Positions 8,701-36,300 of a DNA stretch of 64,000 nt are shown here, one piece after another; position 1 is the first letter of the stretch, and each line of letters begins with the position of its first letter. Position numbers and translations under genes: made by a program. Under the pieces are notes generated by a model. It did no database searches and had not been told where the DNA came from. It saw nothing but the letters and a program-made list of their open reading frames with translations. The stretch is from Haplodiscus bocki (taxonomy: Eukaryota), in NCBI GenBank assembly GCA_965655095.1, contig OZ296651.1, positions 117,738,001 through 117,802,000 on the forward strand. Direction: 5' to 3'.

Positions 8701-10726
8701 ACGCCGTTTACGTCTCAATGAAACAGTAATCATACCACTATAAGACCCAACGCTCCGAAACAGTTGATAGGTGTGGCTAGCATAATTAGCCTTTAAGCTA
8801 CTCACAAACGACAATGAAGGTGATGCAATGGCTAATCGTTCCTCAAACAAAGTTGGAATTCGTCCCAGCTCCGGATGCCTGGGGGGATGCAAGAACTGTA
8901 ACGCACATCCCCTGTCATGCGCAGAACAAGTTTGCACAACCAAACCTTCTTTCTCATGTAACCAAAAAATCGACTCTGGCGCCTCTGAGTTTTTTGAATG
9001 CAGACGCTTGGAATTATTTGAAAGTTCTGTCCACCAAGTTTATGAAATGTTGCGCTGGTATGTACCCAGGATCTTCGATAAACGTCCAACAACCAAAAGG
9101 GCAACGTATGTCTGGATACGGTTCCAAGTCCAAAGCTTCAGCCATTTCTTTTTGTCTCATTGTTCTCATTAGTTGCTCGAAACGTTTCAATCTCTGTGTT
9201 CCATCAACAGTACAAGTGCCAAGAATACGCGGCCGATTTAAAACACGCTGGATGCAGATAGGGAAAAGGGTAATTACCCCTAGCCAATGTTGCCTTATTT
9301 CCAGGGGTAACAGCGAGCAAATAGCGACTAAAGAAGCTTCGGGTCTGGAAGTATCAGAAAGGAGCGTGAAAAAAACAGCTGGCCAAGCCATTTGCCAGTT
9401 AACATTTGGTGCAGTACAATAGTTATAACAGAAACAACACAGATGTACATTTTCGTTTTTCAGCTTTTTGCCGAACTTTCTATTAACCAATCCAACTTTG
9501 CTGTAGGCCTTAAGGTCGAACGGAAAATATACCGTGGCTTGACGCATGCACTTGCAACAAATGTTGGCAGCATCGACAGTATCTGTCACAACCAATTTTG
9601 AATCGATTTCAACGGTTGATTCTTCAGTCGATTTCGGTGGTGGTACAAAGTTTTCAGTTAATTTCAGGAAAATCTCATCAGTCAACTCACCTCCAGGCAA
9701 TCTGTGAAATTGATGTTGTCGATGTTCCACAGCAGTTGGAGGACGGCCTCCATTTTGCGTTGTAGTTTTTTCTGCACCACAAAGAGCTTCCGCCAAACAA
9801 AAAGATGTCACAGCTGTATTAGTTTCTCCAATGTCGATCAAATGTGTGCCGACTGGATAATCTGAAATCCGTCTGCGCTTCTGCAAGGGCTCAGTTTCAT
9901 CAAGTGCTTCAAGTGCTGTCTGGATTACGTGGCAGTCAGTATTCATTGCTGATTTTCCACATTGACTACTCGAACCAGCTAAATCTTCTGATAGGAGTAA
10001 TGAAGTGTGGCATGTTTCGGTCAAGCCACTAATTACCTCAAAGTGATCTCCAGTTCGCGTTTGTTGAATGAAAACTCCTTGTCTGTCATTTGAGCAGTCG
10101 CATTTGTAAACGAACCAACTTTTCAAAATATTGTGGTATACATAAACGTCCAATTTAAAAATTTGACAAAAGGTATAAATTTCCACACAAGTGCCAAAAA
10201 CTCCATTTTCTGCCATTCGCGATGTCTGCAGGTAGTGGTTGACAGTTGGGCTCGTGAGAAGTTTGTTCTGGTTGGGGAACTCAGCGGAATAGATTGAGGT
10301 TTGCAAACTTTTTTCCGGAAAAGTCACCGAGTCCATGTTACTCACAATAAGTTTCCTCAAATCATGACCACTTTCATGAGAAAAACCGAGGGCAACGCCC
10401 GGGGCAGTGAAAAGACAATTACCATCACCCGTTATAGAAAGACTGTGCGAGGGTTGAACAGAACTGAGGCGAATGTTAGTTTTATTCCCAATTATGCCGC
10501 TTGTTGGGGAACAGGATAGTCCCATCGCTTCCAACGTTGATTCTAAGTGCAGGGCATCAACAGAGGAGACCAGCAACTTACTGTCAGGTATACTGTACAA
10601 AATTCCTAATGGTTCGCTAGTTGAAGAAACATTGTCGGTGTTATTTGGACAGGAGTGATTACGTTCAGTGAAGCGTCCACATTTTGCACAGCGACGTCTT
10701 TTCAAATCATTCTTGCCAGATGGCAT
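2756..10726 (-). pseudogene. Disrupted RepHel polyprotein (OTU - Cys-rich - HUH Rep - PIF1 helicase - GIY-YIG), family B copy 1
   Basis: Fragments 10753-9014, 8943-6070, 6076-5672, 5665-3779, 3782-3417, 3571-2756 are colinear with the 2673-aa family A protein. Motifs: GDGNCLF and GDHFE (OTU); EWQDETSAFPHIH and YVAKY (Rep); GAPGTGKT, EEISM, GDFFQLPP, QLYVVMSRV (PIF1); GYCYL..YIGST..RRIREHN (GIY-YIG). Broken by stops, frameshifts and deletions. Confidence 0.9.
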
Positions 10727-10906
10727 TACTCTTTCACAAGAAACTTCGCGCAAAAGTTTATCAATAACTCATCTTCAATAGTGAATACATTGTAAAGAGT
10801 GGGCGCCATTATAGGACCAACGTACAAAACTTTCAAACTGTTCAATTAACGGTAGCATCTAATGAATTCGAAAAAATCGGTATCCAGAAAAATATATGCA
10901 ATGTGG

Positions 10907-14204: not shown

Positions 14205-14221
14205 CCTCCACTGGGTGGTCA
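14205..14221 (+). repeat. 17-bp unit junction J1 (CCTCCACTGGGTGGTCA)
   Basis: Exact 17-mer shared by all 7 junctions; marks the switch from family B to family A sequence. Confidence 0.95.
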
Positions 14222-14810
14222 GGGATGTAACCTTTTTAGAATCCGAGGCCGGGTAGGGTCCCGTTGCCGAGGTTAAATATTAGTCGATAAATTTTCATCT
14301 AGGTGCACTAGGGGTCTGGGAAGCCGATCTCGGGTCCTACCCGATAGAATTTATTCATAATTTGCATGCGGTCCTCAAATGGCGAAGTGAGAAAGGGGAT
14401 GAGGGAAAAAACTTTTTCCATTCACAACGTGATGAGTTATGACGGAATGATCGTGTTTTTTGTCCCGATTTTGACTTCTCATCGCTTTAGTTCCACATCT
14501 ACCCGATACAATTGGCCCAAATTTTGTGTGTGAGGCACAAATGATTTGAACAATTTGCATGCCAAAAATTTTTGGCCCAGCTTTTTTTGTTCGGGAGATA
14601 GGCGCTGATGAATTTGTAAATTTTTGCAAAAAATGCGTCATTCCGTCATTTTTGATCGCCAAAACCAACTTTTTCTCGTATGCTAGCCTTCGCTAAGGAT
14701 GCCAAAACTGAACCGGCAATTGATTTCGGTTAACCAGAAATTTTCGATCGAAATGCCGAAAAAAAAATGACGGATATGACGGGAAAAAAATGACGGAAAT
14801 GACGGATATT
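14222..14810 (+). repeat. Alpha-type head module with inverted repeats and ATGACGG iterations
   Basis: Homologous to 29230-29815 and 31315-31903, more distantly to beta/gamma heads. CGGGTAGGGTCCC (14250) / GGGTCCTACCCG (14332) inverted pair; 4x ATGACGG at 14767-14805. Confidence 0.85.
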
Positions 14811-14842
14811 TTTGTGAGAAAAAAAAAATTTTCCCGGGAAAG

Positions 14843-14918
14843 GATCGCTTTGCGCGTAAAAAGCGCCTAAAAACGCTGGAATTGATCGTTTTGCGCGTAA
14901 AATGCGGCTAACAATGTT
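14843..14918 (+). repeat. Imperfect 41-bp tandem duplication (GATCG(C/T)TTTGCGCGTAAAA...)
   Basis: Copies start at 14843 and 14884; also present in family A copy 2. Confidence 0.7.
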
Positions 14919-15790
14919 TCGCAGCTTCTACACAAGTGGTCGTTGACACTTTGACAGTATTTTGTCTCATATGACACAGTTTTTTCAGCTAAACTCAAAT
15001 TTAATCTAGTTAGGCGTTACTTATGTAAGTTATATTTTATAATCCTACATTTTTTCTCATCAAGTATAATGGCATACATAAATTATATCTTGGATCAGGG
15101 CTCTTTGTTGGTTGTAGAATGCAATAGATGCTTCCATTACGTGTCATTCATTTTGAAAAATAAAAATAAAAGTTTTGGCAATAAGTTTTGCATTCCATTT
15201 CAATTGTTTGCCAGAAATTTTAAGTTTGTTATATTATTGTTCTGAGCATCTATGAGGTTCTTTCGTTTTCCTTGTTATGTTTTTCTGTAGAAATCAGCAG
15301 TGTTGGAACTTTCCACGTTTGCATTACGAGAGTTGAACCTCTTTCATGCCTTGTAAGTTGGAGTGTGTTATGTAATTGTTAATTTTTTTGGTCAGTTTAT
15401 GGTTGGCGTTCAACAAGCACCACTTTGGCATTCGACAAGGAATATTTTGAGAGTATACTTACTCAGCAGTTTGTTTTGTTTGGTGTACAACGCTAACAGT
15501 CCTCATTGTTTTGAATTTGAATCGTATTTAACTAATCATTTTTTCAAGTACTGCAAGTCTTGCTGAAATCACACAAGCATGGTATTTTCGGCATTAAAAA
15601 CGAAAAGTCACTGAAGAGACAGTTAAAAATTCAACTGGTGAACTTCAAATATTCAATGCAGTGAATCTTTTGAATTCAAATGATCCAACTGTTTTTGAAG
15701 TTCCTTTCGATAGAAGATTTTTCTGTAACGCATGTGGCTGTTTCAAAGCCTTCATTGACTGAGTTTTATAGATGTAGGCGCCGCCACTGA

Positions 15791-16213
15791 GTGTTGATGG
15801 GTGTACAGAGTTTTGACGAATCTCATTTTCAGAAAATGGTTTACTCACTTTGTTTAACTTTGTTGATGATTTGGTCTTCTTTATGGACAGTTTTGGAAAA
15901 AGATGGAATTGTTTATGTGAACAATGTCGGAGAAGTCTTCAGCTCAGACGTCACCGTTGGGGAATTTTGTGTCTCTTTGTGTCTTCAGGATCACTTGCAG
16001 TTTATGAGGATCGGCAATTCTGATGAGGTTTCGATGACTCGCAGAATGTTACTTTTGTTTCTGTTGAGAAGTGGTATAGAAACCAACCCTGGCCCGCCAA
16101 AAAAAAAAGAAATTGTGCAGAGAGCCCAGGAAATGCGTAACATGTGGGCGTTTTTATGGCAGCAAAGACTGCTCCTGTTTCCAATCATCCATGGTAAAAG
16201 CCTCAGTTGGTGA
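15791..16213 (+). CDS. Leader ORF with hydrophobic N-terminus and 2A-like ribosome-skipping motif (LLLFLLRSGIETNPGP); probable 5' part of the RepHel gene
   Basis: GIETNPGP encoded at 16073-16096, followed by an A10 run (16099-16108); removing one A fuses it to the RepHel frame. Likely start ATG 15836, behind an acceptor-like TTTTCAG. Confidence 0.65.
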   Translation: MLMGVQSFDESHFQKMVYSLCLTLLMIWSSLWTVLEKDGIVYVNNVGEVFSSDVTVGEFCVSLCLQDHLQFMRIGNSDEVSMTRRMLLLFLLRSGIETNPGPPKKKEIVQRAQEMRNMWAFLWQQRLLLFPIIHGKSLSW

Positions 16214-19200
16214 AGACTATTTTGATCGGTCGCTGTTTTCTGCGCCATTCAATACCATGAGTCTTTTCTCGAACGTGCCGAATTCAACAGCTTTTTCATG
16301 CACAATCGCTAATTTGACGAGAATTTGCATTGTGTTTGGAATACCGTTTGTGGCAAAACCATTGAACACACACTTGTTGGGTGCCAAATCTTTGAACAGT
16401 TTGCATCCATCACAAACTCATCCTGTTCCAGGTGACGGTAATTGTTTGTTCTCTGCTTTAGCGGTGTCAATTGGGTCACAATATTGGTATCATTCACAAC
16501 TACGCCAGCGTATTTGTTTGGCTTTACCCTCCGTAGATATTGCTCCGCATTTTCTGGAAATTTACACAACCATTGATGGAAATGTTGTGGTAGAGACAGC
16601 TTCAAACGTGAACGAATATTTGAATCGTTCCGGAATGAGATCGAATGGTGTGTATGGCACTTGTGTAGAGATCTATGCTTTCGCCCAAATTGCGGTGGCT
16701 GATGTTTACGTTTACCATTGCATGACAAAATTGTGGATAGTTTATAGCTATGCCGGAGATCGTGCTTCAATGGACGTTCCATCTGTCTTCCTGGTACATA
16801 CTCATACAGGTAACCATTTTGAAACGGTAGCAGTGTTGTCGGCAGAAAATCCAAATTCACAGCAAAGTTTGCCTCATGGTTGCGTCCAGAGTTCATTCCC
16901 AGATACGGCATCACAATGCAATGTGATTTCCGCGTCATTTCATGCGAACACTTCTGATCCAAAAGGTAGTGCGTGTTCTGAATTTAAAGTTTTGCCTCAT
17001 TTGTGCGATGAAGGCCTCACATCACCCTCTGTTGGATTGGGCGGTATGCACAACGACCTTTTGTTGCCCAGCAACAGTTGTTTAAGCCTAGCGACAATTG
17101 AATGTGAAGAAAATGGTTCTAAGTGTGACCCGTTGAGCCCAGGTGTTTGCTTCAATGCCCTGCCTCAGGAGATTCAATCCACGCAATCCGCACACAATGG
17201 CACAGCCACAATGATTATGAAGAAAGATAACGCCTGTCGTAATGAGGATGCCTCGAGTGACAATTGTGTTTTGACGTCCACTTTTTCAGCCGACAAAGCA
17301 CAAAACAGAGAAATGTGCGGTAAATGTTGTCGAATTTCAACTCCTGCTTATCCTTTGCAATGGCAAACTCTTGAAAAAACAGCAATCAAACGAAGGAGAT
17401 TTGGTTTGCGACCTACTGCTACCTGTCTGGTCTGCCAAAGTTGTTTCAATTACAATAATGGCGGAAATTGTTGGCGGTACGCTTGGCCTTCCGTGATTCA
17501 TTCGTTACTGAAGGATCTCAGCATTCGAGATTGTACTATGAAAAAATTTGTTTCTTTTTTACCTCCCGAAATACGCGACAGTTGGGCTATGTGTCAACAT
17601 CTGCATCCTGCTGTTTCTATGGGTGATCCATCTGTTCTAGTTGATATAACAAAACGGAAGGAAGTTTTTCTGGACAAAATAAATTCGGGTAATTTCACTG
17701 ATTTGGAGGAAGCCTTAGATAATGAATGTTATCCAAATTGTAGATGTCCCTTCGGTTGTTTCACATTTGTTGAAGAAACAGGTCGAATCGGTTTCAACCA
17801 CCTTGTAAATGGGATTTTGCCTTCATTCACATCGTTCAGCTCTGATTACTTGTACCATTTGCGAGGTGCAAGAGACGATTGGTTGAAACCAATGAAAGTT
17901 TTGGATGCGTTTGATGTTTCCGGCTTTGTCAGTGTTAATGGGGCATATGGCCTTGTTATCGGAACTTGTGTGCAGCATAACAATGGGTCTCACCTGCAGT
18001 ATCTTCACCCGCCTGCACACCCGTCTCTGGGACGTCTCAGTGTTCCTACCAACGACAGATTAGCATTTGTTGCTCCAAATTTGCGTATTTTGAAGAATGT
18101 CAAAGCGAATTACGCTAGTCACACTTTCCAGTTGCTGAAAGCTGTCGGTAATTATTCAGGCATTAGTAGCATTCGCTTGAGCTCTCAACGCCGTTGGGAT
18201 ATTACTTCGGATCTGTTAGTGAAGGCGGAATCTCAATGTAGTTTTTACCGAAGCGATATTCAATATTTTTTGAATAGCTTAGTGTCTTCTGGCGAAACAA
18301 CTGATGAAATCCGACAAGGCATTCAAAGTAAACCGAACATTGAACAGTCGGCTGCTTCTCTTTCCGCATCAACAAGTGTGTCTATAACGGATACGTATCG
18401 TTTATTCAGTTCTCCTGGATTGACTGATGGACAACGCTTATGCGCAAAATTCAAGTCTGTGACGTTCGCTCAGCCTCCGAATTCGTTTGGTTCCTCTCCT
18501 CCAAAAATTTTCAGCTGCAAGACTCACTTTTTGTCGTTGTTGCAAACTTTATTTTGCATCTCTCCTCAACTGTGTCGATCCATATCTGATTCAGCTGGTG
18601 TTGATAATGCGATTTTTCCTTTGCTGCAATTTTTGGACCCTGTAATTTTTCCAAGGTTCCGTCGCTGCACAAGAAAAACTGTGGATGCGTCTATGAGTGA
18701 TGGATTGTCGAAGTTGTTTACAAGATTTCCGGAAAGTCCATCTCGTTGTCTCAGTTTCGGTGTGTCACAATTTTGTGATGATGTCATCCATGAAAACGTG
18801 GCAAGCCGTCAAGATATTTGGCATTTTTTGGAAGCTCAAGAATTTGAAGGTGTAAATGTCATACTTTTTTCATACGCGGGAGTAAATACTTTGCGTTCTA
18901 AATTCAAAGCTCCTCTGAACTTCCAAACTGCTCAGTCCGTTTTCGAGTTGAAATTTATTGCTACTGAAGGTTTAGCGACTCGTAATAACATTCTTTTGAG
19001 GCATGGTGGTGTCTTTCAAAGTTTTTGGGTGTATAAAAGCAAAAGTATTTTTCCTGAACAGGTGAGGCTGCCTTGTGATAGAGCGGTTGATCATTTTATT
19101 AATGACTATTGGAATATCTGTGTTTACTATCGACAGACCTTTGCCGATATTAGTGAGTTGCGGTCGAAATATTTTGAAACACTGGCAGGTCAAGGAAAAT

Positions 19201-22200
19201 TCTTTTGTAAAAAGCATTCTCTGTTACTCACCCGTGATTTTCCTTCAAGTGGTTTCAAATGCTCATGTGGTAGAAGTTCTTTTTTACGTTGTCCAGTGTC
19301 TGGTTGTTTGGCAAGTGTTTGCAGGATGCATTCTGAAGATGAAAGTCAGGAAAAGCACTTTGTTTTTGATGGTAAAAAAAGGATCTTTGGTGAGTCCACA
19401 AAAAACTCAGCGTGCGGCTCAAGTCAGTTAGATGATTGTAGCTATAGCCGTGTTTCTGTCGATTCAGAGAATCGGTCCACATCGCCTACCAACACTGTCG
19501 CGTCCTCGGAATTTGTTACCAACCCTGGCCTTTTAGAGGAAGATTCTGAGGGATCGCATGTTTCGCTGCCTGTTACAACTGCTGCTGGAGATTCAACTGT
19601 TGTTTTGGAACGTGATTTCCGAATAGACAGCACTGATTTTCAGCTCCCACTACATGTTTTATTGAATGGTCAATGCGGTTTACTGAAAAGGAGTAAAGGG
19701 TCTCCGTTGTATGTTGCAGCTAGACATAAGAGATTTCTGGAGAATATCACTGCAACGTCGCCCCCTAATTCTGTCCCTTTGCTTCAGCCGGAAGCCATGT
19801 TGTTTCCGTCCATCTTTTGGCACCAAAATACAGACGGCAGTTATTCGGGTGCAATACCGTCTCCTTTGTATAATGATCACAAACAAAACGAATTGCTCGG
19901 CTTCGCTAGCTTAGAACAACATTTACAAACGCGCTTGAAAGATTCGTCTCTGTTGACGTCAACGGATCCTCGTTACGTCCAATACGTATTTGACACAATA
20001 TTTAACCTACAGCTGCGTGTCAATGACACGAGAATAGTATTGAACAGAGGTTGGAGTGAAGCCGCTCGGCAACGAAAAAATGTACATGCCATGCGAGAAG
20101 GGGCAATTTTTTTTGATCAATGCGATTCTCGGAAGAATGTCAATGAATTGGGAGCAGCTTTGAAAGAACGACCAGCTACATATTTTTTCACTTACACTTG
20201 TGGGCAGTCAACGCATCCTGGCTTGAGGAAGATTTTTAGTGCGTTGGACGCAAAGTTTCCGAAAGACGTCTGTAAAGAGGAGGTCCGAAAATCAGCGATT
20301 CAATCTGAAATGGTCACCATGTTGAGAGCGTGGGAACGAGCTTCTCGTCTTGTCATGAAGTACATTGAAACGTCACCCGAGCAGCCATTGGGAAAGGTTA
20401 ATAAGATTTGGTATCGGTATGAGTTTCAAGATGAAGCTTGTGGGTTCCCTCATGTACATGCTTTGATTTGGACGGCAGAAGATTGCTTTAGTGAAGCAGT
20501 AAGGTCTAGAATTTGTTGCTCGGCAACAACGTTTCTGGGGAATTTATTGACTGAAGTTGGTTCGCACAATTATAGTTTGGATGAGTTGAACGAGTTACGA
20601 GATCTGTTCAACCGTTACCAATCACACAGCTGTTTTAAAGCTAAATTTCGTTGTCAGAAAAAAACTGACAAATTGAAAAGAAAAACGTGCCGCGTGCCCA
20701 AATACCCTCCTTCTGCTAATTTTACCTACAAATGTATTCACAAAGAACTGTCTGAGGAAACGATAGCAGTTTTGAAGAACATCGGATTAGCTGAGTCGAG
20801 TGACTTTGATTGTTCTGTCACCATTGATCAGCGCCTTTGTGGTGGCAAGCATCATTATCCAACAGAAAGTAACACGCACACTTCTCCAACAAACGCCAAA
20901 ATTTTTGCCCTCGTCCGATCTAGCACCAATCTACAAATTTGCGACATTTACATGAGTAGCCGTTATCTGTCAAAATATGTTGCAGGCGTGGAGGAACGCG
21001 CCGAAGTTTCTATTTCTACGTCAAGTGCAACAGATTTGTATGACTTCCATGTTGATCAACAAGTGAACAACAAAATCGCTGGGGTATACTTGACCAATAT
21101 GAGCAAGGAGGAAAAGCCAAAGAAAAAGTGTTTGAACTCTCGCATTTTGAGTTTAACGGAATCCGTGTGGTGGTCATTGCGATTTCCTTACGTGGTGACC
21201 AATATACAATTCATTCATGTTGTCACTGCCCCGCGAGAGAAACGGGCTGGAATAGTCATTGAACCGAAATGCAGGCTTTCTAGTAGCAATCAGGGTCCTC
21301 TTTTTGGGCGCCAGAGTTCCATTAGACACAGCAAGGACTTTCCTCCTCACCGTTGCTTCACGGTTAATCAGAAGCTGCTGATAATTGATGCAGAAAAAAG
21401 TTCTCTTTCTCCAGACAAGATAACAGTTTTTGGTGTACGACCCCCTGAACTAACTTTTGTGCTCAAAGTGGAAAACTATTTTACTTGGTTCTGCCGCTTC
21501 CGAAAGCCCTCAAAGTTGACACCAGAAAGTTTACTAAAGAGAAATGTAACCAAATCATATTGGGTGGATGGCCTCGGCTATTGCATATACCTTAATGCTT
21601 TGTACAAAGAAGCTTTTTTCAACTACTGTCGCAACTTTTCTAGTGGGGTCCGTCGTTTCTCCAGGCAATGTCATGAAGCCATTGCATGTACAACGAGCAG
21701 TTCAAGTCACAAGTTCATTTATGACAAAAAGGTTTGTCAAACTCAAGTAGTTTTATCGAACGTTGTTCCGAGGAACACAACCAATTTTTTGACCCACATT
21801 CTGTTGTCTCTTGGAGAATACGTAACCGAACTTGACATTTTTTCTCAATCGAATATGAAATCTGCGTTCTTTGAGGCTTCTTTAGCGAGGTCTCATTTAG
21901 GATGCGAAGATTCCGAAGTTATTGATGTTGTTCGGCGCTTTGTGCTTGAACAATTACGCTATTATCCAGGATCATCTACTTTACTAGATCGATTTGTTAC
22001 GAGTGCCTATTTGTGCATCCAGCAAGCAGCACAAAATAATTCGGTCGTTTTTCCGAGCTCAACACCGCGCGTCTTAGAACAGAGTATTGCGCAGCAGAGT
22101 GACAGCAATATTTCACACGAATTAAATGCGCAGAAAGAGAGTCTTCTGTGTGCCATTGCCAATGGGGGTTATGTTGGTTTACCAACGTATGCAGAATTGA

Positions 22201-24134
22201 TGAACGCCACCTTAGCACGTCCTTTTACTTGGAGCCAGAAGATACATAAAGCGCGCAACCAGACTGACGAATCATTGCATGATCAACAGAATATTTTGGA
22301 TTACGTTTGTTCTTTGTACGATAATTATTGTTCTTGTACGACTGCCTTTATTAAACATCAGTTCATAGTTGGTCCACCAGGTACAGGAAAGAGCCATGTG
22401 TTGATCCATTGTGTGATCGCGGCTCTAGCTAGGGGATTGAGATGCGTCATAACTAGTGTCGCTGCGGAGAGAGCTTCACTTTTCGGCGGAAGACACATAA
22501 ACGCTTTAATCCCTTTCCCTGTCGTTCAAAATGGAACGGTGACTCATCTAGTTTCGCATGCATTGAACACTCTTGCCCGAGATCCTGTAAAATTTACTTT
22601 TTTGGAGAGGTTGGATGTTTTATTTGTCGAGGAAGTCTCAATGATTTCAGCTGAACTTTGGTCCGCAATGGACAATGTGTTGCAAGCCGTGTCTGAAAAC
22701 AATCTTCCCTTTGGAGGAAAGATTGTTATTTGCACAGGTGATTTTCGTCAACTTCCGCCTCCTACGGGAACGTTCCTTTTGCTGAGCAACTCGGTGTTAG
22801 CTAATTTCGAGGTTCGGTATTTGAAGCACTATGTGAGGATGCAGAACCAGCAAGGAAAGAGACTTCTGGATTTGCTGTCTGAATATCCTGTGACAGAAGC
22901 ATGTATTAAGGAGTGTTGTGAGATCATTGACAAGTTCTGTATTTTTGTAAGCACGTGGACGGAAGTCCCTCTGGATATTTTGAGAGTGTTCAGTACGCGA
23001 GTTGCGGAAAAAGAGGCCGTGGAAGAGAGAATATCGTTTGTGACAACACATCAAAACATACAGAGTGTGTCTTTCCATTGCAAGGATGAAATGTCAAATA
23101 CAGGAACCCAGAATTGGGTTACCGCAACAGCACCCGTCAGCAAGTTCCTCAACCGAAGTTGCCTTGAGCCAGAGTCTTTGTTTATACATGTTGGGTGTGT
23201 ATTGCGCTTAACTTGCAATTTGCCATCGCTGAAACTGTTCCAGGGACAATTGTGTTTAGTTGAATCGTTCGATGAAAATGATCCTCATATTGTTGTGAGA
23301 GTTGCACCAGCCGGAGTAAGGTCTGTGTCATCTAACAACCCGGACGTTAATTCCTGGAGACTTGTAGTTGTTCGTAAAAGAATTGGCGTTCTCCATAAGT
23401 ATAGCAATTCTACCGTTTGCAGACGTGTTCAGTTTCCTTTGAAAATGTATGTGGCGTCAACGGTTCACAAAATAATGGGTGACACTGTTCCAAACTTGGC
23501 AACACAGATTGTTGGGGGTAAAAAATTCTCCTACTGGCTGAAAGAGCAGCTTTATGTAGTTGTTAGTCGGGTCGCTGATCTTTCCCATATAACGTTTGTC
23601 GGTGACAAGCAGCGTACACTTGATGCAATTAATCTTCTTTGCCGCAAAGATAGCCATTTGGTACCTTTGATAGATAACTTTCTGTCGTCTCGTGGCAGTT
23701 GTAATTCCGGTGTTTCAGCGATCCAGACATTTTATCCCTTTCCCTTACGTGTTTTTGATGTACCCCTTTCGGCAATTGGTTACTGTTATTTGTTGGTGAG
23801 CGTTAAACGCAGGGAACTTTTTTACATTGGAAGCTGTAAGACGTTGCGGCGACGATTGCAGGAGCATAATTCGGGAAATGGGAGCGCATTTACAAAGCCT
23901 GTTGAAAGAAGACCCTGGGCTTTAGTTGCTTACGTGACGGGGTTTTCCAACGCTGTTTCCCGAAGCCGTTACTCTTTCGAACAGGATTGGCAAAGAGCAA
24001 TGGTTAATCACAAATATTCGAATGTGATGCTAACGCTTGCAGATTACTTGTCAGAATGCCATGTTCTTATGGATTTGTATAAAGTTACAGGTATCGAAAC
24101 AGCCCTGGAATGTGATTGCATGCAGAATTTTTAG
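16113..24134 (+). CDS. Helitron-type RepHel polyprotein, 2673 aa: OTU protease, Cys-rich region, HUH Rep, PIF1-family helicase, C-terminal SLX1-like GIY-YIG endonuclease
   Basis: OTU VPGDGNCLF (~16425) and GNHFE (16809). Rep YFFTYTC (20181), YEFQ..PHVH (20418-20459), YLSKY (20964). Helicase GPPGTGKS (22371), EEVSM, GDFRQLPP, QFPL..STVHK, QLYVVVSRV. GIY-YIG GYCYLL..YIGS..RRLQEHN..RPW..VTGF..FEQDWQ from 23778. True start uncertain (TTG; first ATG at 16191). Confidence 0.95.
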   Translation: MCREPRKCVTCGRFYGSKDCSCFQSSMVKASVGEDYFDRSLFSAPFNTMSLFSNVPNSTAFSCTIANLTRICIVFGIPFVAKPLNTHLLGAKSLNSLHPSQTHPVPGDGNCLFSALAVSIGSQYWYHSQLRQRICLALPSVDIAPHFLEIYTTIDGNVVVETASNVNEYLNRSGMRSNGVYGTCVEIYAFAQIAVADVYVYHCMTKLWIVYSYAGDRASMDVPSVFLVHTHTGNHFETVAVLSAENPNSQQSLPHGCVQSSFPDTASQCNVISASFHANTSDPKGSACSEFKVLPHLCDEGLTSPSVGLGGMHNDLLLPSNSCLSLATIECEENGSKCDPLSPGVCFNALPQEIQSTQSAHNGTATMIMKKDNACRNEDASSDNCVLTSTFSADKAQNREMCGKCCRISTPAYPLQWQTLEKTAIKRRRFGLRPTATCLVCQSCFNYNNGGNCWRYAWPSVIHSLLKDLSIRDCTMKKFVSFLPPEIRDSWAMCQHLHPAVSMGDPSVLVDITKRKEVFLDKINSGNFTDLEEALDNECYPNCRCPFGCFTFVEETGRIGFNHLVNGILPSFTSFSSDYLYHLRGARDDWLKPMKVLDAFDVSGFVSVNGAYGLVIGTCVQHNNGSHLQYLHPPAHPSLGRLSVPTNDRLAFVAPNLRILKNVKANYASHTFQLLKAVGNYSGISSIRLSSQRRWDITSDLLVKAESQCSFYRSDIQYFLNSLVSSGETTDEIRQGIQSKPNIEQSAASLSASTSVSITDTYRLFSSPGLTDGQRLCAKFKSVTFAQPPNSFGSSPPKIFSCKTHFLSLLQTLFCISPQLCRSISDSAGVDNAIFPLLQFLDPVIFPRFRRCTRKTVDASMSDGLSKLFTRFPESPSRCLSFGVSQFCDDVIHENVASRQDIWHFLEAQEFEGVNVILFSYAGVNTLRSKFKAPLNFQTAQSVFELKFIATEGLATRNNILLRHGGVFQSFWVYKSKSIFPEQVRLPCDRAVDHFINDYWNICVYYRQTFADISELRSKYFETLAGQGKFFCKKHSLLLTRDFPSSGFKCSCGRSSFLRCPVSGCLASVCRMHSEDESQEKHFVFDGKKRIFGESTKNSACGSSQLDDCSYSRVSVDSENRSTSPTNTVASSEFVTNPGLLEEDSEGSHVSLPVTTAAGDSTVVLERDFRIDSTDFQLPLHVLLNGQCGLLKRSKGSPLYVAARHKRFLENITATSPPNSVPLLQPEAMLFPSIFWHQNTDGSYSGAIPSPLYNDHKQNELLGFASLEQHLQTRLKDSSLLTSTDPRYVQYVFDTIFNLQLRVNDTRIVLNRGWSEAARQRKNVHAMREGAIFFDQCDSRKNVNELGAALKERPATYFFTYTCGQSTHPGLRKIFSALDAKFPKDVCKEEVRKSAIQSEMVTMLRAWERASRLVMKYIETSPEQPLGKVNKIWYRYEFQDEACGFPHVHALIWTAEDCFSEAVRSRICCSATTFLGNLLTEVGSHNYSLDELNELRDLFNRYQSHSCFKAKFRCQKKTDKLKRKTCRVPKYPPSANFTYKCIHKELSEETIAVLKNIGLAESSDFDCSVTIDQRLCGGKHHYPTESNTHTSPTNAKIFALVRSSTNLQICDIYMSSRYLSKYVAGVEERAEVSISTSSATDLYDFHVDQQVNNKIAGVYLTNMSKEEKPKKKCLNSRILSLTESVWWSLRFPYVVTNIQFIHVVTAPREKRAGIVIEPKCRLSSSNQGPLFGRQSSIRHSKDFPPHRCFTVNQKLLIIDAEKSSLSPDKITVFGVRPPELTFVLKVENYFTWFCRFRKPSKLTPESLLKRNVTKSYWVDGLGYCIYLNALYKEAFFNYCRNFSSGVRRFSRQCHEAIACTTSSSSHKFIYDKKVCQTQVVLSNVVPRNTTNFLTHILLSLGEYVTELDIFSQSNMKSAFFEASLARSHLGCEDSEVIDVVRRFVLEQLRYYPGSSTLLDRFVTSAYLCIQQAAQNNSVVFPSSTPRVLEQSIAQQSDSNISHELNAQKESLLCAIANGGYVGLPTYAELMNATLARPFTWSQKIHKARNQTDESLHDQQNILDYVCSLYDNYCSCTTAFIKHQFIVGPPGTGKSHVLIHCVIAALARGLRCVITSVAAERASLFGGRHINALIPFPVVQNGTVTHLVSHALNTLARDPVKFTFLERLDVLFVEEVSMISAELWSAMDNVLQAVSENNLPFGGKIVICTGDFRQLPPPTGTFLLLSNSVLANFEVRYLKHYVRMQNQQGKRLLDLLSEYPVTEACIKECCEIIDKFCIFVSTWTEVPLDILRVFSTRVAEKEAVEERISFVTTHQNIQSVSFHCKDEMSNTGTQNWVTATAPVSKFLNRSCLEPESLFIHVGCVLRLTCNLPSLKLFQGQLCLVESFDENDPHIVVRVAPAGVRSVSSNNPDVNSWRLVVVRKRIGVLHKYSNSTVCRRVQFPLKMYVASTVHKIMGDTVPNLATQIVGGKKFSYWLKEQLYVVVSRVADLSHITFVGDKQRTLDAINLLCRKDSHLVPLIDNFLSSRGSCNSGVSAIQTFYPFPLRVFDVPLSAIGYCYLLVSVKRRELFYIGSCKTLRRRLQEHNSGNGSAFTKPVERRPWALVAYVTGFSNAVSRSRYSFEQDWQRAMVNHKYSNVMLTLADYLSECHVLMDLYKVTGIETALECDCMQNF

Positions 24135-25475
24135 TGTTTATTTGATTGTTCATATGTAATTGTCTACAACGATTTAGACTTTTGTAAAACTGCCATCGAG
24201 AAAACCGATTGTATTTCAAAAGTATTCCTGAACATTGGTTTGTCCGAAACCAACTTTTCAGCAAATAATTTTTGTAGCCAATCATGTTGATTGATTTGAT
24301 TCTTTGCCATTGTTTGCTGTTGGTTTTGAGCCAACCTTTGAAAAAGAGGATGTGTTGTAATAGTTGGAAGATTAATTTTGTAACGGGATGTCGTTTTCAT
24401 TTTTATCACCTTTTCGTTGGACTCACTGAGTAACTTTGTTTAGATTCGTGATCGAACTTTTATGCTATGATACTTTATGGAATAACGTACACAATTATAT
24501 CACACGGTAATTGAAAGAATCATACAATCCTTTTCCGCCATAATTTGTTTTGACATGTGTCTGTAATTACACTGAAGGAGCTGTTTTGATGTTTTTGGGA
24601 GATTGTTTCCAATATTTCAGACGCTATAGGGGTTTAACTTTTTGTTCGGTAATCAGTGCAGAAATTTATTGAAAAAATTGTCAACTGCAAGAGAATGTGA
24701 CGGGGTTTCTACAATGTGACATTGCTGTTTATGTTTTGTGATTGTATCACTGACTGTGAGCTGTTTTAGATGTTAATTCTGACTCATATAATGATTTATT
24801 TTTTTTATAGCTGACGGAGGCAATTTAGCTTTCATGTTTTGTTTTGCTGGTTGCTCAGCAACCGCCGACGCAAGTTCTCAATTAGAATGTTGTTTGTTAG
24901 ATGAACGTATATGAGTTGGTTGTCCAGCAACCCATGTTCTACAAACTGGCCTGGAAACATAAAGAGATAGCAGCGGAGTTCATTTGTAGCGCGGCACCTT
25001 TCAAATCCATTCCATATTCCTTGTTACGGAAGCTGTGAACACTTTTTCTTTCAAGTCATTAAACGCTCTATCATTTGTTTTATGAGAAGCTTTTTTATTA
25101 TCGTTACTTTTGTGAATTGAAGTGTTTCACCACTATGTACTTCTTTGCAGCGATTAAAGAGGGGCTCTTATTTCGTGCATATCGAGTTGTTTGAGTGAGA
25201 TTTTCATTCTTCGGGTATGTGGCTATTGTATTTTTTATAAAATTTCCTTTCCTCAAAGAACATTTCTGATTTTTGACCGTATTGACGACTCTGTAGCTGT
25301 GTGACCGTTGTGAATTTTTGTTTGACTTCGTTTTTGTTCTAATAAGCAAATGACATGAATGAAAGGAGATTCTGGAGTTTGAGTAGGTTTTTCTAATTGC
25401 AAAGTAAACAATATAAAGTATGTTTCGTTCGTTTGTTTGTTTTCATAATGCATTGTCTTTCGGTTTCCGGTTGTT

Positions 25476-26129
25476 ATGTCTGAATATTTTGTTTTGGCGG
25501 CCTCTTCCCTTTATTGGGCAGCTCAGGAGAAACCTTACCTCTTTGATCCTTTCAAGTCACAATTTTGTGCAATTTCTGGTGCTTCGCTAAATAACTACCA
25601 ACCAGAAAAAAACATTTGTTATCTTCTTCAATCGAATTCCTGCAACACTAATGGAAGAAAGGTTATCATTTGGCATGATGCTGTCAATAACTCTTTGTCA
25701 AGCAAGAAGAATCCGGCAATGAGTCCTGAGGCTTTTTTCAGTAAACTGGCGTACTTGAGAAAATTCAATGTCGTGGCTTTTTCCTACTTACCACGATCAG
25801 GAGCGCATAATTTAAACGAGCTCTTGGAAAATTGTCCAACAGGAATTATTTTTTTGAAAATGAAATCGATTCTATCAAAACGGTACAAACTTTTACTTGA
25901 TGAAAGTAACGATCTGCACCTGAATAGCTTGTTAGAGAATCATATGCTATCCAGAACACTGTTGAACAATGGTTTGCAGGATTTGACTTTGCGTCGGTGC
26001 CGCAATAGACGCAATAATCTCCGAAACAAAGTTAGTGTTTTAGTTTTTGGTTTCTGTTTTATTGACAATTTCGAAGATAAGCAGCAACATATTTTTGCCA
26101 CAATTTTTGAAAGAAAACCGGAACGTTAG
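25476..26129 (+). CDS. Divergent SGNH-hydrolase-like protein (possibly spliced 26030->26370, stop 26408)
   Basis: SGNH-like blocks LAASSL, ISGASL, WHDAVNNSL, NDLHLN. Same position in the gene order as the clearer SGNH gene of family B. Candidate phase-0 intron AAA|GTTAGT...TTCTTGCAG|G. Confidence 0.6.
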   Translation: MSEYFVLAASSLYWAAQEKPYLFDPFKSQFCAISGASLNNYQPEKNICYLLQSNSCNTNGRKVIIWHDAVNNSLSSKKNPAMSPEAFFSKLAYLRKFNVVAFSYLPRSGAHNLNELLENCPTGIIFLKMKSILSKRYKLLLDESNDLHLNSLLENHMLSRTLLNNGLQDLTLRRCRNRRNNLRNKVSVLVFGFCFIDNFEDKQQHIFATIFERKPER

Positions 26130-26291
26130 TGATTACACGGTTGATGCATTTAACATCCGAACCAAGTGAGTAGATACAAATTTCGTGCATAACATATTCA
26201 CTTTACTCAGTGTCAATAGTTTAAAGTTTTTGGTAACCAAATCCGGAGTTGGAAGAGTTAACTGGAGAGTTTTTTATGCTTCAATAACAGC

Positions 26292-26331
26292 ACTTGCTTG
26301 TTTTCACGATTCATCGTGAAAACAAGCAAGT
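26292..26331. repeat. Perfect 19-bp inverted repeat with 2-nt spacer
   Basis: ACTTGCTTGTTTTCACGAT-TC-ATCGTGAAAACAAGCAAGT. Confidence 0.9.
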
Positions 26332-27072
26332 CCTTTGCGAACTATTTCAAGATTATCTGTTTCTTGCAGGTCAAAAGAAACAGATGTGAGTTTCACGAAT
26401 CGGCATAGGCATCAATTACCGCGAGCTCCATGAAGATAACTTGATGATTAGGAAGTCCGTCGGTGTTTTAACACCGCGTGAATATTTGTAATGCGGTCAT
26501 TTCTGTCATGATTTGGTGTTATTGTTTAATTGCACTATTTGTGCTGCCATATGGTTTTTAAATGTAAAAAATGAATTGGCAATATTGCATTCATTTAGTT
26601 GAACTATGATTTTACATTTGATGATGTTATTTGAAGCTGAACGCTTTTTTGGCATTTTGTTTATATCCTTTTGGCATGCAGGTTTTTTTACTGGAATCTG
26701 TTGTAAATTGTTTTGTTTTTGGAAATAGAAATAGTTCAGAGGAAATTCAGTTTAATGTACTATCTGTGTTTCAATTTATATGTTTTCGGTATGCGACCAA
26801 TTTTTGACTTGGAGTGGAAAACTGTTTTGAGGACACACCCGATAAATGACTGCAGATTCAGTTGATTCCAGACAAAGTGTACCATAGACGGGACTGAAGA
26901 GTTGCTAGGCTTTAATAAAAAAACGGATTTTCTAAAGTTTTCTTTCATCAAAAATTTTTCTTTGTTCATTGGGCGTTTTTCCGTTTGAGAGAAATCAGAC
27001 TGCAAATCTTGACTTGTGTTTTTTATCGTGTACTTCCTCGTTTGAAACACATCCTTTTGCATTTTTTAAGAA

Positions 27073-28065
27073 ATGAATAGACAAGTAACTGTTGCTGAAG
27101 TTACAGGCGAAGGTTTCCTGCGCAACAGCCAGAACACTGTAATAAGGGGGATAGTTTTGGTTCTGAAAAAAAGTGATCGGCCACTTCAGTTGTTTAGACC
27201 TCAAGCTACAAAATTGAAACGACCACTTCCTGAAGGGACATATGACAGAATGGTTATTATTGGTCAATGGAATAGTAAAGATTGTTTTGTCGTCATCTCA
27301 GTATCCGCGCAGAAGTCTGCTAAACTGTTTTCGGATCGTCATCTGACTGTTGGTTCTGTTGTAGAGGTTACAGAGCCTATATATTCGAACACGTGTTTAG
27401 GGAATGACAAAAATAATCCGATTATTGAAACTCATCAGGCGATCGTTGTTATCAATAACGTAAGCAATGAGGATTTTCCGCCAATTCCAATTATTTCCCT
27501 ACCGAGCACGCCCGCAATGTTCCATTACACTCTCAACAGTAGAAATTTGTTGTTTTTGCATGGAAACATTATATCACCTACGTGTTCTGGAAGTATGTGC
27601 GACCGTCGTATTCTCAGAAATGAAACGGTGTGCGCTTGCTTACACAAGAATTCAGTTTCGTCGTGGACTGTCGCCGCACGCATCATTTCTAGGGACGTGG
27701 AAGAAGAAGCGGACGATCCCCTGAGCGGAGACATGACCCAAAGTCATCAGTTGGCATCGTTCTTTTGCAGCAATGACGTTCTTCGATTGCCAGCTAGCTC
27801 GGTTGAATTGAATCTGTTGCGTGAATCAATGACTAGGGTGACAGCATATGTCAACGATAATGGTGGTTGGAGAATATCTGGCTACAGCAAATCCAGTGTC
27901 AGTGATGAGTCAATTACTCAAGCTGTTCATCATGTGCGAATTTGTCGTCTTATGCCAGCTTCGGTAATCCCGAACAACTTGAAGTACACTATTGGTAATG
28001 CTCGGCAACCGCCCAATCGGCCACCTCCACTACAGCATGCCAACCCGAATGTTCAGCACGATTGA
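27073..28065 (+). CDS. Conserved 330-aa accessory protein, possible OB-fold/Zn-binding ssDNA-binding protein
   Basis: Full-length homolog of the family B ORF at 49737-50768 (FLRNS, DRPLQLFRPQ, YDR, CLGND, CSGxxCDRR..CACL, NGGWRxSG). Function is inference only. Confidence 0.8.
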   Translation: MNRQVTVAEVTGEGFLRNSQNTVIRGIVLVLKKSDRPLQLFRPQATKLKRPLPEGTYDRMVIIGQWNSKDCFVVISVSAQKSAKLFSDRHLTVGSVVEVTEPIYSNTCLGNDKNNPIIETHQAIVVINNVSNEDFPPIPIISLPSTPAMFHYTLNSRNLLFLHGNIISPTCSGSMCDRRILRNETVCACLHKNSVSSWTVAARIISRDVEEEADDPLSGDMTQSHQLASFFCSNDVLRLPASSVELNLLRESMTRVTAYVNDNGGWRISGYSKSSVSDESITQAVHHVRICRLMPASVIPNNLKYTIGNARQPPNRPPPLQHANPNVQHD

Positions 28066-29212
28066 TTTGTTATGGATTTTTCAAAATCCCCTACGGATAT
28101 GTGCTTTTTGAAGTCGAATGAGAATGAACATATAGAAGGATGTTCCTTTTTGAAAGTTTCACATCTATTGTTATTCTGTAGTGCCGTCGATGAATTCAAC
28201 GCAGTTGCCTTAGCAACTCAACTTTACATGGTCTCTTTTACATTTAAACCTTCTTTCCACAAACTTTACAATGAAACAAACAACTGTTTTTCTCTCACCT
28301 AAATAAATCTTGTTTCGTTATGGCAGTACCCTGCATTATTCTCTGTAAAGTAGTTCGATTTACTTCAATAATCCACGTTGAAGGTTTTATGAAATTTTCA
28401 CTACGCTTTTCAATGTTAGTAAAGCACTATGGAAGTAATTTTCTTAAGTCAGTGGCCTCTCAATAATGATGCTATCATTAGTATTAGAAGATATATTTGC
28501 TCCAATTTGTCAAGATATTGATAAATTTAACGTACTCAAATTAGATAGGAACTTTTGGTTCGCGATTTGCCTCGTGTTCAAATAGTTTACTCATAAAGTT
28601 GGAGGAACAAATGAAAATACTTTGAAAGTGTTCAAAGTTCTAAAAGAGATTCACTGTGAATAGCAACGATTTATAGTTTGCATGAGCCGTGAAGTCATTT
28701 CGATGTCCCAAGTCAGTGGTACGCTCACAGAAGTCTATGTTGTCTTTGTTCAAAATGTCGCAGTGATTAAACGGAGATGAAATTCTCGTTTAAAATAAGA
28801 CAGTAAAGAAGGTTGAGCGAATTTTGCAGTGTGTGAGCCTCGTTTTGCTATGTAGACATATCGATCTTTTAGGAACATTTATAAATGGGAAAACGTGTAG
28901 GAGCTTTGAAATTTTTCATAAACAGCTGTTTTGAGTTTTATGTTTCTTCTCAAAATTTAATTGTTATTTTTGGACCTGGTTTTTTCAATAGGAGTTGGAA
29001 AAAGTTCTTTTACTCAGGGGTTTTTCTTTGATAAAGTCGGATCTATTTTTCCGTTTTGGCTATTGTTGTTCATTTCTTGAACGGTTTTAGCTTCTGTTCT
29101 GTTGAGATTGAGAGTTAATTTTTTTTACTTTTATGACAAAACTCCATTTCAGTTGGTGTCCACAGATACCTATCCAACATTCACTGGGCCTCTCTAGCGA
29201 ACGGTACCTTTG

Positions 29213-29229
29213 CCTCCACTGGGTGGTCA
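29213..29229 (+). repeat. 17-bp unit junction J2
   Basis: Exact CCTCCACTGGGTGGTCA. Confidence 0.95.
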
Positions 29230-32883: not shown

Positions 32884-33306
32884 GTGTTGATGGGTGTACA
32901 GAGTTTTGACGAATCTCATTTTCAGAAAATGGTTTACTCACTTTGTTTAACTTTGTTGATGATTTGGTCTTCTTTATGGACAGTTTTGGAAAAAGATGGA
33001 ATTGTTTATGTGAACAATGTCGGAGAAGTCTTCAGCTCAGACGTCACCGTTGGGGAATTTTGTGTCTCTTTGTGTCTTCAGGATCACTTGCAGTTTATGA
33101 GGATCGGCAATTCTGATGAGGTTTCGATGACTCGCAGAATGTTACTTTTGTTTCTGTTGAGAAGTGGTATAGAAACCAACCCTGGCCCGCCAAAAAAAAA
33201 AGAAATTGTGCAGAGAGCCCAGGAAATGCGTAACATGTGGGCGTTTTTATGGCAGCAAAGACTGCTCCTGTTTCCAATCATCCATGGTAAAAGCCTCAGT
33301 TGGTGA
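32884..33306 (+). CDS. Leader ORF with 2A-like motif, copy 2
   Basis: Same translation as 15791-16213; A10 run at 33192-33201. Confidence 0.65.
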   Translation: MLMGVQSFDESHFQKMVYSLCLTLLMIWSSLWTVLEKDGIVYVNNVGEVFSSDVTVGEFCVSLCLQDHLQFMRIGNSDEVSMTRRMLLLFLLRSGIETNPGPPKKKEIVQRAQEMRNMWAFLWQQRLLLFPIIHGKSLSW

Positions 33307-36300
33307 AGACTATTTTGATCGGTCGCTGTTTTCTGCGCCATTCAATACCATGAGTCTTTTCTCGAACGTGCCGAATTCAACAGCTTTTTCATGCACAATC
33401 GCTAATTTGACGAGAATTTGCATTGTGTTTGGAATACCGTTTGTGGCAAAACCATTGAACACACACTTGTTGGGTGCCAAATCTTTGAACAGTTTGCATC
33501 CATCACAAACTCATCCTGTTCCAGGTGACGGTAATTGTTTGTTCTCTGCTTTAGCGGTGTCAATTGGGTCACAATATTGGTATCATTCACAACTACGCCA
33601 GCGTATTTGTTTGGCTTTACCCTCCGTAGATATTGCTCCGCATTTTCTGGAAATTTACACAACCATTGATGGAAATGTTGTGGTAGAGACAGCTTCAAAC
33701 GTGAACGAATATTTGAATCGTTCCGGAATGAGATCGAATGGTGTGTATGGCACTTGTGTAGAGATCTATGCTTTCGCCCAAATTGCGGTGGCTGATGTTT
33801 ACGTTTACCATTGCATGACAAAATTGTGGATAGTTTATAGCTATGCCGGAGATCGTGCTTCAATGGACGTTCCATCTGTCTTCCTGGTACATACTCATAC
33901 AGGTAACCATTTTGAAACGGTAGCAGTGTTGTCGGCAGAAAATCCAAATTCACAGCAAAGTTTGCCTCATGGTTGCGTCCAGAGTTCATTCCCAGATACG
34001 GCATCACAATGCAATGTGATTTCCGCGTCATTTCATGCGAACACTTCTGATCCAAAAGGTAGTGCGTGTTCTGAATTTAAAGTTTTGCCTCATTTGTGCG
34101 ATGAAGGCCTCACATCACCCTCTGTTGGATTGGGCGGTATGCACAACGACCTTTTGTTGCCCAGCAACAGTTGTTTAAGCCTAGCGACAATTGAATGTGA
34201 AGAAAATGGTTCTAAGTGTGACCCGTTGAGCCCAGGTGTTTGCTTCAATGCCCTGCCTCAGGAGATTCAATCCACGCAATCCGCACACAATGGCACAGCC
34301 ACAATGATTATGAAGAAAGATAACGCCTGTCGTAATGAGGATGCCTCGAGTGACAATTGTGTTTTGACGTCCACTTTTTCAGCCGACAAAGCACAAAACA
34401 GAGAAATGTGCGGTAAATTTTGTCGAATTTCAACTCCTGCTTATCCTTTGCAATGGCAAACTCTTGAAAAAACAGCAATCAAACGAAGGAGATTTGGTTT
34501 GCGACCTACTGCTACCTGTCTGGTCTGCCAAAGTTGTTTCGATTACAATAATGGCGGAAATTGTTGGCGGTACGCTTGGCCTTCCGTGATTCATTCGTTA
34601 CTGAAGGATCTCAGCATTCGAGATTGTACTATGAAAAAATTTGTTTCTTTTTTACCTCCCGAAATACGCGACAGTTGGGCTATGTGTCAACATCTGCATC
34701 CTGCTGTTTCTATGGGTGATCCATCTGTTCTAGTTGATATAACAAAACGGAAGGAAGTTTTTCTGGACAAAATAAATTCGGGTAATTTCACTGATTTGGA
34801 GGAAGCCTTAGATAATGAATGTTATCCAAATTGTAGATGTCCCTTCGGTTGTTTCACATTTGTTGAAGAAACAGGTCGAATCGGTTTCAACCACCTTGTA
34901 AATGGGATTTTGCCTTCATTCACATCGTTCAGCTCTGATTACTTGTACCATTTGCGAGGTGCAAGAGACGATTGGTTGAAACCAATGAAAGTTTTGGATG
35001 CGTTTGATGTTTCCGGCTTTGTCAGTGTTAATGGGGCATATGGCCTTGTTATCGGAACTTGTGTGCAGCATAACAATGGGTCTCACCTGCAGTATCTTCA
35101 CCCGCCTGCACACCCGTCTCTGGGACGTCTCAGTGTTCCTACCAACGACAGATTAGCATTTGTTGCTCCAAATTTGCGTATTTTGAAGAATGTCAAAGCG
35201 AATTACGCTAGTCACACTTTCCAGTTGCTGAAAGCTGTCGGTAATTATTCAGGCATTAGTAGCATTCGCTTGAGCTCTCAACGCCGTTGGGATATTACTT
35301 CGGATCTGTTAGTGAAGGCGGAATCTCAATGTAGTTTTTACCGAAGCGATATTCAATATTTTTTGAATAGCTTAGTGTCTTCTGGCGAAACAACTGATGA
35401 AATCCGACAAGGCATTCAAAGTAAACCGAACATTGAACAGTCGGCTGCTTCTCTTTCCGCATCAACAAGTGTGTCTATAACGGATACGTATCGTTTATTC
35501 AGTTCTCCTGGATTGACTGATGGACAACGCTTATGCGCAAAATTCAAGTCTGTGACGTTCGCTCAGCCTCCGAATTCGTTTGGTTCCTCTCCTCCAAAAA
35601 TTTTGAGCTGCAAGACTCACTTTTTGTCGTTGTTGCAAACTTTATTTTGCATCTCTCCTCAACTGTGTCGATCCATATCTGATTCAGCTGGTGTTGATAA
35701 TGCGATTTTTCCTTTGCTGCAATTTTTGGACCCTGTAATTTTTCCAAGGTTCCGTCGCTGCACAAGAAAAACTGTGGATGCGTCTATGAGTGATGGATTG
35801 TCGAAGTTGTTTACAAGATTTCCGGAAAGTCCATCTCGTTGTCTCAGTTTCGGTGTGTCACAATTTTGTGATGATGTCATCCATGAAAACGTGGCAAGCC
35901 GTCAAGATATTTGGCATTTTTTGGAAGCTCAAGAATTTGAAGGTGTAAATGTCATACTTTTTTCATACGCGGGAGTAAATACTTTGCGTTCTAAATTCAA
36001 AGCTCCTCTGAACTTCCAAACTGCTCAGTCCGTTTTCGAGTTGAAATTTATTGCTACTGAAGGTTTAGCGACTCGTAATAACATTCTTTTGAGGCATGGT
36101 GGTGTCTTTCAAAGTTTTTGGGTGTATAAAAGCAAAAGTATTTTTCCTGAACAGGTGAGGCTGCCTTGTGATAGAGCGGTTGATCATTTTATTAATGACT
36201 ATTGGAATATCTGTGTTTACTATCGACAGACCTTTGCCGATATTAGTGAGTTGCGGTCGAAATATTTTGAAACACTGGCAGGTCAAGGAAAATTCTTTTG

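Follow-up and report, generated by a model that had tools for sequence, protein, structure and literature searches.

The Helitron-like elements of the window

The window, a stretch of 64,000 nucleotides on a 121-Mb contig of the 1.5-Gb Haplodiscus bocki genome, contains an array of Helitron-like elements, among them two copies of family A (A1 and A2) that are 99.8% identical across 15 kb and two copies of family B (Table 1). The family A element is Helitron-like because an HUH Rep domain and a PIF1-family helicase are encoded in one ORF (RepHel). Read in frame, its modules are an 86-aa leader, a 2A-like motif, a proline, a basic patch, a zinc knuckle and the OTU, Rep, PIF1 and GIY-YIG domains, in that order; the OTU match is above the curated Pfam cut-off in the relatives P0007 and P0008. 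Family B has the same domains on the opposite strand in broken frames, and its ATG (10726 and 61859, minus strand) lies 12 codons ahead of the knuckle.

Table 1. Features of the family A and family B elements in the window
Feature	Position	Strand	Remarks
Family B start: Met, basic patch, zinc knuckle	10670..10726	-	No leader, no 2A; second copy starts at 61859
Element copy A1, Helitron-like	14215..29222	+	15,008 bp; starts GTGGTC, finishes CCACTGG, read on the RepHel ORF strand
Leader, 86 aa	15836..16093	+	From ATG in AAAATGG context (predicted start codon) to Gly of NPG
Signal-peptide-like hydrophobic start of leader (predicted)	15836..15895	+	Kyte-Doolittle 11-mer maximum 2.32
Leu-rich 2A-like (StopGo) motif	16037..16096	+	Core GIETNPG/P; predicted skip between 16093 and 16094
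A1 long RepHel frame	16080-24134	+	2684 aa; first ATG 16191
A10 run	16099..16108	+	A9 in the majority of copies; slippage hotspot; breaks the A1 frame
Basic patch (putative NLS) and CxxCGxF...CxC zinc knuckle	16101..16178	+	First module past the 2A
OTU-like protease domain	16428..16799	+	Pfam PF02338 E=0.0029, under curated cut-off; GDGNC and NHF motifs present
HUH Rep domain	20169..20984	+	FFTYTC, HVH and YLSKY motifs, with a longer spacing in motif II; Pfam Helitron_like_N E=2e-7 over 20169-20468
PIF1-family helicase core	22353..22760	+	Pfam PF05970 E=3e-13; Helraiser 7lcc E=4e-7
C-terminal GIY-YIG nuclease	23778..23999	+	Pfam PF01541 E=3e-9; SLX1 matches
Copy A2 leader, 2A and A10 run	32929..33201	+	Same as A1
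Copy A2 RepHel frame	33173..41227	+	2684 aa; differs from A1 by 9 residues

The first-pass annotation of this DNA described, in both A copies, a 2A-like GIETNPGP followed by an A10 run that places RepHel in the +1 frame, a TAG at 16077 and a first in-frame ATG at 16191, and for family B a matching zinc knuckle (RRCAKCGRF) and no 2A. All of this is present as described: RRMLLLFLLRSGIETNPG-P at 16040-16096 is followed by CCA and the A10 run, A2 is the exact equivalent of A1 over 16040-16200 (offset +17093), and the RepHel frame is +1 relative to the 2A frame, with TAG at 16077-16079 as its upstream limit. Across all six frames of the window, ExNPG occurs just twice, once in each A copy. That annotation overlooked an open stretch of 98 codons upstream in the 2A frame, with an ATG in good context at 15836. 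Its expectation that nine As would carry the 2A frame into RepHel is borne out, except for the peptide at the junction, given as PKKKLC: natural A9 copies read PPKKKKLCREPRK, with four lysines.

The leader is demonstrably under coding constraint. The ATG at 15836 is retained, along with its context, in 6/6 divergent copies, and the 261-nt leader region has no gaps in 5/5 divergent copies versus 6-31 gaps in the 1.3 kb upstream. In the most divergent pair, 14 changes per 58.8 synonymous sites compare with 22 per 202.2 non-synonymous sites (p=0.018), and the last 25 codons contain six synonymous versus two non-synonymous changes (p=0.002); dN/dS is weaker evidence in other pairs (p=0.085 for L052, about 0.7 for L057 and L058). 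By hydropathy alone, five of eight leaders begin with a strongly hydrophobic 11-mer (>2.1), often followed by Trp-Cys/Ser, one is intermediate, and two have no hydrophobic start, possibly as a result of the called start. The leaders of the 2A relatives barely align with one another; a search for homologs returned no usable match from the ESM Atlas, and a search of shorter proteins matched the leader's own family alone (12 matches). The Herpes_teg_N profile had 0 matches in the host genome and likewise 0 in controls.

Reading frame at the A-run

A genome search with 351 bases gave 37 matches on nine contigs, and all 35 outside the window were retrieved; 35 copies including both window copies could be scored for frame, two of the 37 being too decayed. 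At the A-run, 23/35 copies are in frame, nine are +1, two are -1 and one is -4, and in seven copies leader, 2A and RepHel form a single frame of 2780 codons that runs uninterrupted to the stop. The first-pass annotation had called for the length of the A-run in other genomic copies, and most turn out to keep the frame. The A-run is the longest homopolymer of the ORF, and 12/35 copies have an indel there, in both directions, with +1 outnumbering -1 by 9:2; the T8 run and the two A7 runs of the ORF have no recurrent indel. Copies with +1 are present in all three subfamilies, as judged by shared indels (mosaics and truncations disturb the DNA tree of the copies, which has poor resolution). Three of them carry the same 11-nt deletion as four in-frame copies; thus, +1 either arose repeatedly or moved by recombination. 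This deletion breaks RepHel about 840 nt past the 2A and is common to L031-L033, L040 and L047-L049, on two contigs, and since seven copies share it, defective copies spread in trans or by array expansion. Further breaks or an early end of alignment are found in 7/9 of the +1 copies, among which only the window pair is otherwise whole; RepHel is open to its stop in 2/9 of the +1 copies versus 8/23 of the in-frame copies (p=0.68), with no enrichment in the former. Other public assemblies contain full-length in-frame proteins (P0181, P0187), a protein with one Lys fewer that keeps the frame (P0185), and short proteins of the +1 type (P0215, P0217, P0218, P0221) that may share a source with the host genome.

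Read contigs were available from four runs on two samples of one study (29 of 39 pieces listed). Among the pieces listed, seven span the run in the two large subfamilies and are all A9; another three, belonging to the small G-A subfamily, are of +1 length (X1 record 4, X2 record 11, X3 record 18), so +1 alleles exist as DNA. For the subfamily of the window, no A10 contig crosses the run among the pieces listed, bearing in mind that contigs drop minority alleles. These contigs favour A9 in the two large subfamilies, yield +1 in the G-A subfamily, and speak neither way on the A10 of the window itself.

Three explanations of the A10 run have to be weighed. The reading that the first-pass annotation put first is a programmed one: +1/-2 frameshifting or transcriptional slippage on the A-run, tied to the pause at the 2A, would limit transposase output. 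Both window copies are otherwise intact, the +1 form arose at least three times and outnumbers -1, and it occurs in read contigs of one subfamily and as short proteins in public assemblies, all of which would suit such a mechanism. Against it, the majority of copies are in frame, and most copies, like the listed read contigs of the two large subfamilies, carry A9, the length that the annotation itself regarded as leaving no recoding; 7/9 of the +1 copies are damaged elsewhere or end early in alignment; and the six protein relatives all read through in one frame (7/7 relatives of the motif in total are in frame). The sister family in the same genome has the 2A with the A-run in 0/4 copies, so that there is no conserved slippery site, and the sequence after the run folds no better than shuffles in any of three windows of pseudoknot-free prediction (z -0.25, 0.14, 0.76), which speaks against a 3' stimulatory structure. 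Programmed recoding is accordingly rejected as extremely unlikely; a low-level accidental leak on A10 may occur but would not count as programmed. The A10 of the window might instead be only an assembly or sequencing error, both window copies being in frame, which would agree with the A-run being the longest homopolymer of the ORF and with the lack of A10 across the run in the listed contigs of the window's subfamily (four runs, two samples). The loss of minority alleles from contigs, the +1 allele in contigs of another subfamily and the lack of recurrent indels in T8 and the two A7 runs make this unlikely, and it bears only on whether the window copies are live, not on the mechanism. As an account of all +1 alleles, pure assembly error is weakened by the +1 form in the G-A read contigs, from which it follows that +1 is mostly real slippage. 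Of the two simpler possibilities offered by the first-pass annotation, then, a 1-nt insertion stands, recurring in three subfamilies, and homopolymer error is unlikely. The A10 of the window is most likely a product of ordinary replication slippage, a one-base mutation by which the frame is lost; the shift belongs to the normal decay of homopolymers.

Conservation of the 2A-like motif

A search with the Rep region gave 31 proteins, and a wider set comprises 176 homologous proteins (317,210 residues). The six nearest relatives (P0003-P0008), 51-64% identical in Rep, all have an in-frame ExNPGP located 47-154 residues from the called start and directly before the basic patch and zinc knuckle, and a second family in the same genome has GLELNPGP in 4/5 copies and NLGP in 1/5 at the same position. 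NPGP occurs six times in the 176 homologous proteins, each time at the 2A site, so the motif is not there by chance. ExNPGP is invariant in 8/8 family representatives, and their cores open with G, C or N; the consensus (D/G/C/N)(V/I)ExNPGP is matched exactly by six of the eight, and two have Leu at the V/I position (GLE, NLE). One copy of family A has NSGP at the motif. The leader-2A cassette is therefore conserved in frame across a branch of rolling-circle DNA transposons, and the identification of a 2A by the first-pass annotation is upheld, as is its absence from family B.

The basic patch and zinc knuckle are conserved in relatives with and without 2A. Family B, P0009, P0010, P0014, P0015, L094 and L097 start with Met just before them, and families that have no leader retain the OTU domain; the N-termini of P0011-P0013 look truncated, which makes their 'no 2A' label uncertain. 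In a quick Rep tree (best 45 of 125 usable rows by score; a second tree had 21 rows), seven 2A rows group together (SH-aLRT 100), with P0008 as the sister of a Met-started group (SH-aLRT 97), a placement that implies one gain and one loss, or two gains, of the 2A. The AU test neither rejects nor establishes a single 2A clade (p=0.084), and the 2A label changes twice on the tree versus 7.5 times in shuffles. The wider lineage of Rep-PIF1-GIY-YIG proteins has 970 representatives at E 0.001, reaches protists (one match in Perkinsus olseni), and seems little described.

Comparison with known 2A peptides

In cellular genomes, 2A peptides are known from retrotransposons and from a small number of host genes. 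The expanded StopGo core is (D/G/C/N)(V/I)ExNPGP, with G as common as D in viruses (PMC12846837); GLE and NLE, with Leu at the V/I position, are not among the variants tested in that source. The window core fits viral StopGo motif 5 of the same source, the G-core Leu-rich type, including the (A/G/S)G described at its upstream end, and differs in belonging to a transposon rather than a virus; motif 5 is not among the motifs assayed there. By inspection, the window 2A has five Leu at -10 to -15, including -13 and -14. Five Leu at these positions fit the active class of Snell and Matreyek (PMC13405545), who screened 20-mers in a reporter in human cells and found that three to six Leu, with Leu at -13 and -14, accompany reduced protein abundance, which was seen for 59-70% of the retrotransposon 2A-like peptides tested. 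From their data, 28 of 48 rows with six G-core endings were listed, of which 25 are Leu-rich after subtraction of three of the Trp type; among these 25 analogues listed, 12 skipped, three fell off and 10 did not skip, nine scored reduced protein, and one of the four that end in GIETNPGP skipped (PMC13405545). Judged by its sequence, the window motif is likely to be active in skipping.

Like the 2A-like peptides of APE-type non-LTR retrotransposons (Odon et al. 2013, PMC3708506), the motif of family A is Leu-rich, lies near the start of a long enzyme ORF at a fixed position, and is patchy across related lineages. It differs in being part of a rolling-circle DNA transposon that has no reverse transcriptase or APE domain, in its core, G(I/V/L)ExNPGP here versus GD(V/I)ExNPGP there, and in that sister families show Met at the cut site (PMC3708506). 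The 2A-like signal sequences of Roulston et al. 2016 (PMC4981915) offer a further parallel, in that a skip would leave a secretion signal on one side and a cytosolic product on the other. In that case the 2A doubles as the signal, and in sea urchins the unskipped product is reported to enter the ER (PMC4981915). In family A the signal-like segment is distinct from the 2A, about 65 residues ahead of it, and what would be released is a transposase. The Acropora millepora protein XP_044182051.1 (PMC13405545, file 4 row 102) has an N-terminal 2A-like peptide before a deubiquitinase-like domain, with PIF1 as its top match, but it has a D-core peptide, another leader and protease fold and a 'falloff' score, and is filed as a DNA helicase (PMC13405545); it is probably an unrecognised Helentron fragment. 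No paper was found that places a 2A in a Helitron, although Repbase, subscription journals and further supplements may hold one: the word 'Helitron' is absent from the main texts of PMC12338488, PMC12846837, PMC3708506, 10.64898/2026.06.17.732966 and 10.64898/2026.09.24.754024, and from the searched supplements of PMC12338488 and 10.64898/2026.06.17.732966. As far as the literature could be searched, an in-frame leader-2A cassette on a GIY-YIG RepHel is undescribed.

Proposed function of the leader-2A cassette

RepHel is a one-frame gene in most copies, and it is probable that the leader and 2A serve to release the transposase by a skip of the Gly-Pro bond and that the A10 of the window is a slip. 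Translation would start at the ATG at 15836, the ribosome would skip the Gly-Pro bond at 16093/16094, and the released transposase would begin with Pro, the basic patch and the knuckle, like the products of the Met-started families. From the window copies, translation would yield the leader and a further 39 residues before ending at 16211, and these copies would need in-frame ones in order to move. Should the hydrophobic start prove a genuine signal, the unskipped product would enter the ER. Since a transposase released in this way would have an N-terminus like that of the Met-started families, the role of the cassette most likely concerns the amount or place of the transposase and leaves its action unchanged. 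More tentatively, and somewhat doubtfully, the arrangement may be a virus-style polyprotein gated by the ER, in which the signal leads to the membrane and only skipping ribosomes free a nuclear transposase, any unskipped product being drawn into the ER and lost; the cassette would then be an add-on that replaces the start codon, gained or lost in the lineage, and maybe convergent with those of LINEs and Helentrons.

Release by skipping has two rivals. The motif might stall or throttle translation, its Leu-rich helix lowering output or causing drop-off and making the transposase self-limiting, as the Leu count of five, including -13 and -14, would predict from the reduced-abundance peptides of Snell and Matreyek and from the nine of 25 analogues listed that were reduced; the strict NPGP and a post-skip N-terminus that matches the Met start of sister families fit a defined cut better, and throttling as the function is distinctly unlikely, even though throttling and skipping are compatible rather than mutually exclusive. 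Alternatively, there might be no recoding: the Leu-rich stretch could serve as another hydrophobic segment, or be cut by a protease such as the OTU of the element itself, with the leader cut off post-translationally or retained. An OTU-like domain with catalytic motifs does lie about 110 residues downstream, and the 10 of 25 listed analogues that failed to skip could be cited in favour, but leaderless families retain the OTU, the first core position varies only within the set that StopGo permits, and ExNPGP has no exception in the eight representatives, all of which makes this reading highly improbable.

With release by skipping as the preferred reading, a conserved 2A in a DNA transposon would mean that 2A use is independent of an RNA life cycle. 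The same arrays hold sister families that have the cassette and others that lack it, and this natural pairing can serve to test the role of the peptide ahead of a transposon 2A, a question raised by Odon et al. 2013 (PMC3708506) and by the 2026 screens. For such proteins, gene prediction from the first ATG downstream overlooks the true N-terminus.

Element ends and classification

The ends of family A were mapped from 11 5' and eight 3' junctions of genomic copies, with a latitude of up to 3 nt, GT/GGT being common to both sides. The left flanks end in CT(A/G/T)G in 11/11 and the right flanks start with GT in 8/8. The same pattern is that of the element's own end-to-start junction (window 14215, 29222/29223, 31308 and about 46315; L066-L085), and sequence-specific junctions could explain mixed head-to-tail arrays. 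The junction pattern presumably resembles the tetranucleotide targeting of IS91-type elements. No inverted match of at least 8 nt was found between the end regions that would represent inverted terminal repeats, and at E 0.01 Pfam matched neither APE nor DUF6570 in the window elements.

As in HLE1 and HLE2 elements, Rep and PIF1 are in one ORF with the OTU upstream, and the orientation of the ORF relative to the ends is variable; a GIY-YIG domain is known in one HLE2 family, HelenSM92, and the available text mentions no 2A for either group (PMC11417382, PMC3627910, PMC6431247). Their ends are TC...CTRR inserted between A and T, or insertions between T and T with asymmetric inverted repeats, and family A has neither (PMC11417382, PMC3627910, PMC6431247). 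Where HLE1 has 5'-TC, CTRR-3' and insertion between A and T, family A starts with GT and ends with CTGG, between flanks of CTDG and GT; the T-T target and asymmetric inverted repeats of HLE2 are likewise absent at the mapped ends. By its ends the element fits neither HLE1 nor HLE2, and it is filed under neither, although it works in the manner of a rolling-circle transposon.

Several other features of these arrays are recorded here. Families A (16080-24134, plus) and B (2756-10768 and 53936-61901, minus) apparently have common end sequences with RepHel in opposite orientation, and some 30-70 nt inward of the GTGGTC end, inspection by eye shows a GC-rich stretch resembling a hairpin. Elsewhere in the genome, a mixed array of about 0.55 Mb (C3:133.75-134.31 Mb) holds many copies of several Rep families at a spacing of about 15 kb. 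Three large contigs carry Wnt matches, which mark the host as an animal. Collagen IV NC1 matches occur only on C85:27004-29407 and on none of the large contigs, possibly marking an unplaced or foreign piece. Accessory ORFs at 25449-26129 and 27070-28065 (again at 42542-43222 and 44162-45157) and at 49737-50771 (minus) have no Pfam match at E 0.01. The 2,085-bp unit at 29223-31307 has the family A 5' end and no long ORF, and is probably a non-autonomous passenger. A near-perfect palindrome of 46 nt lies between the two accessory ORFs of family A (26289-26334 and 43382-43427).
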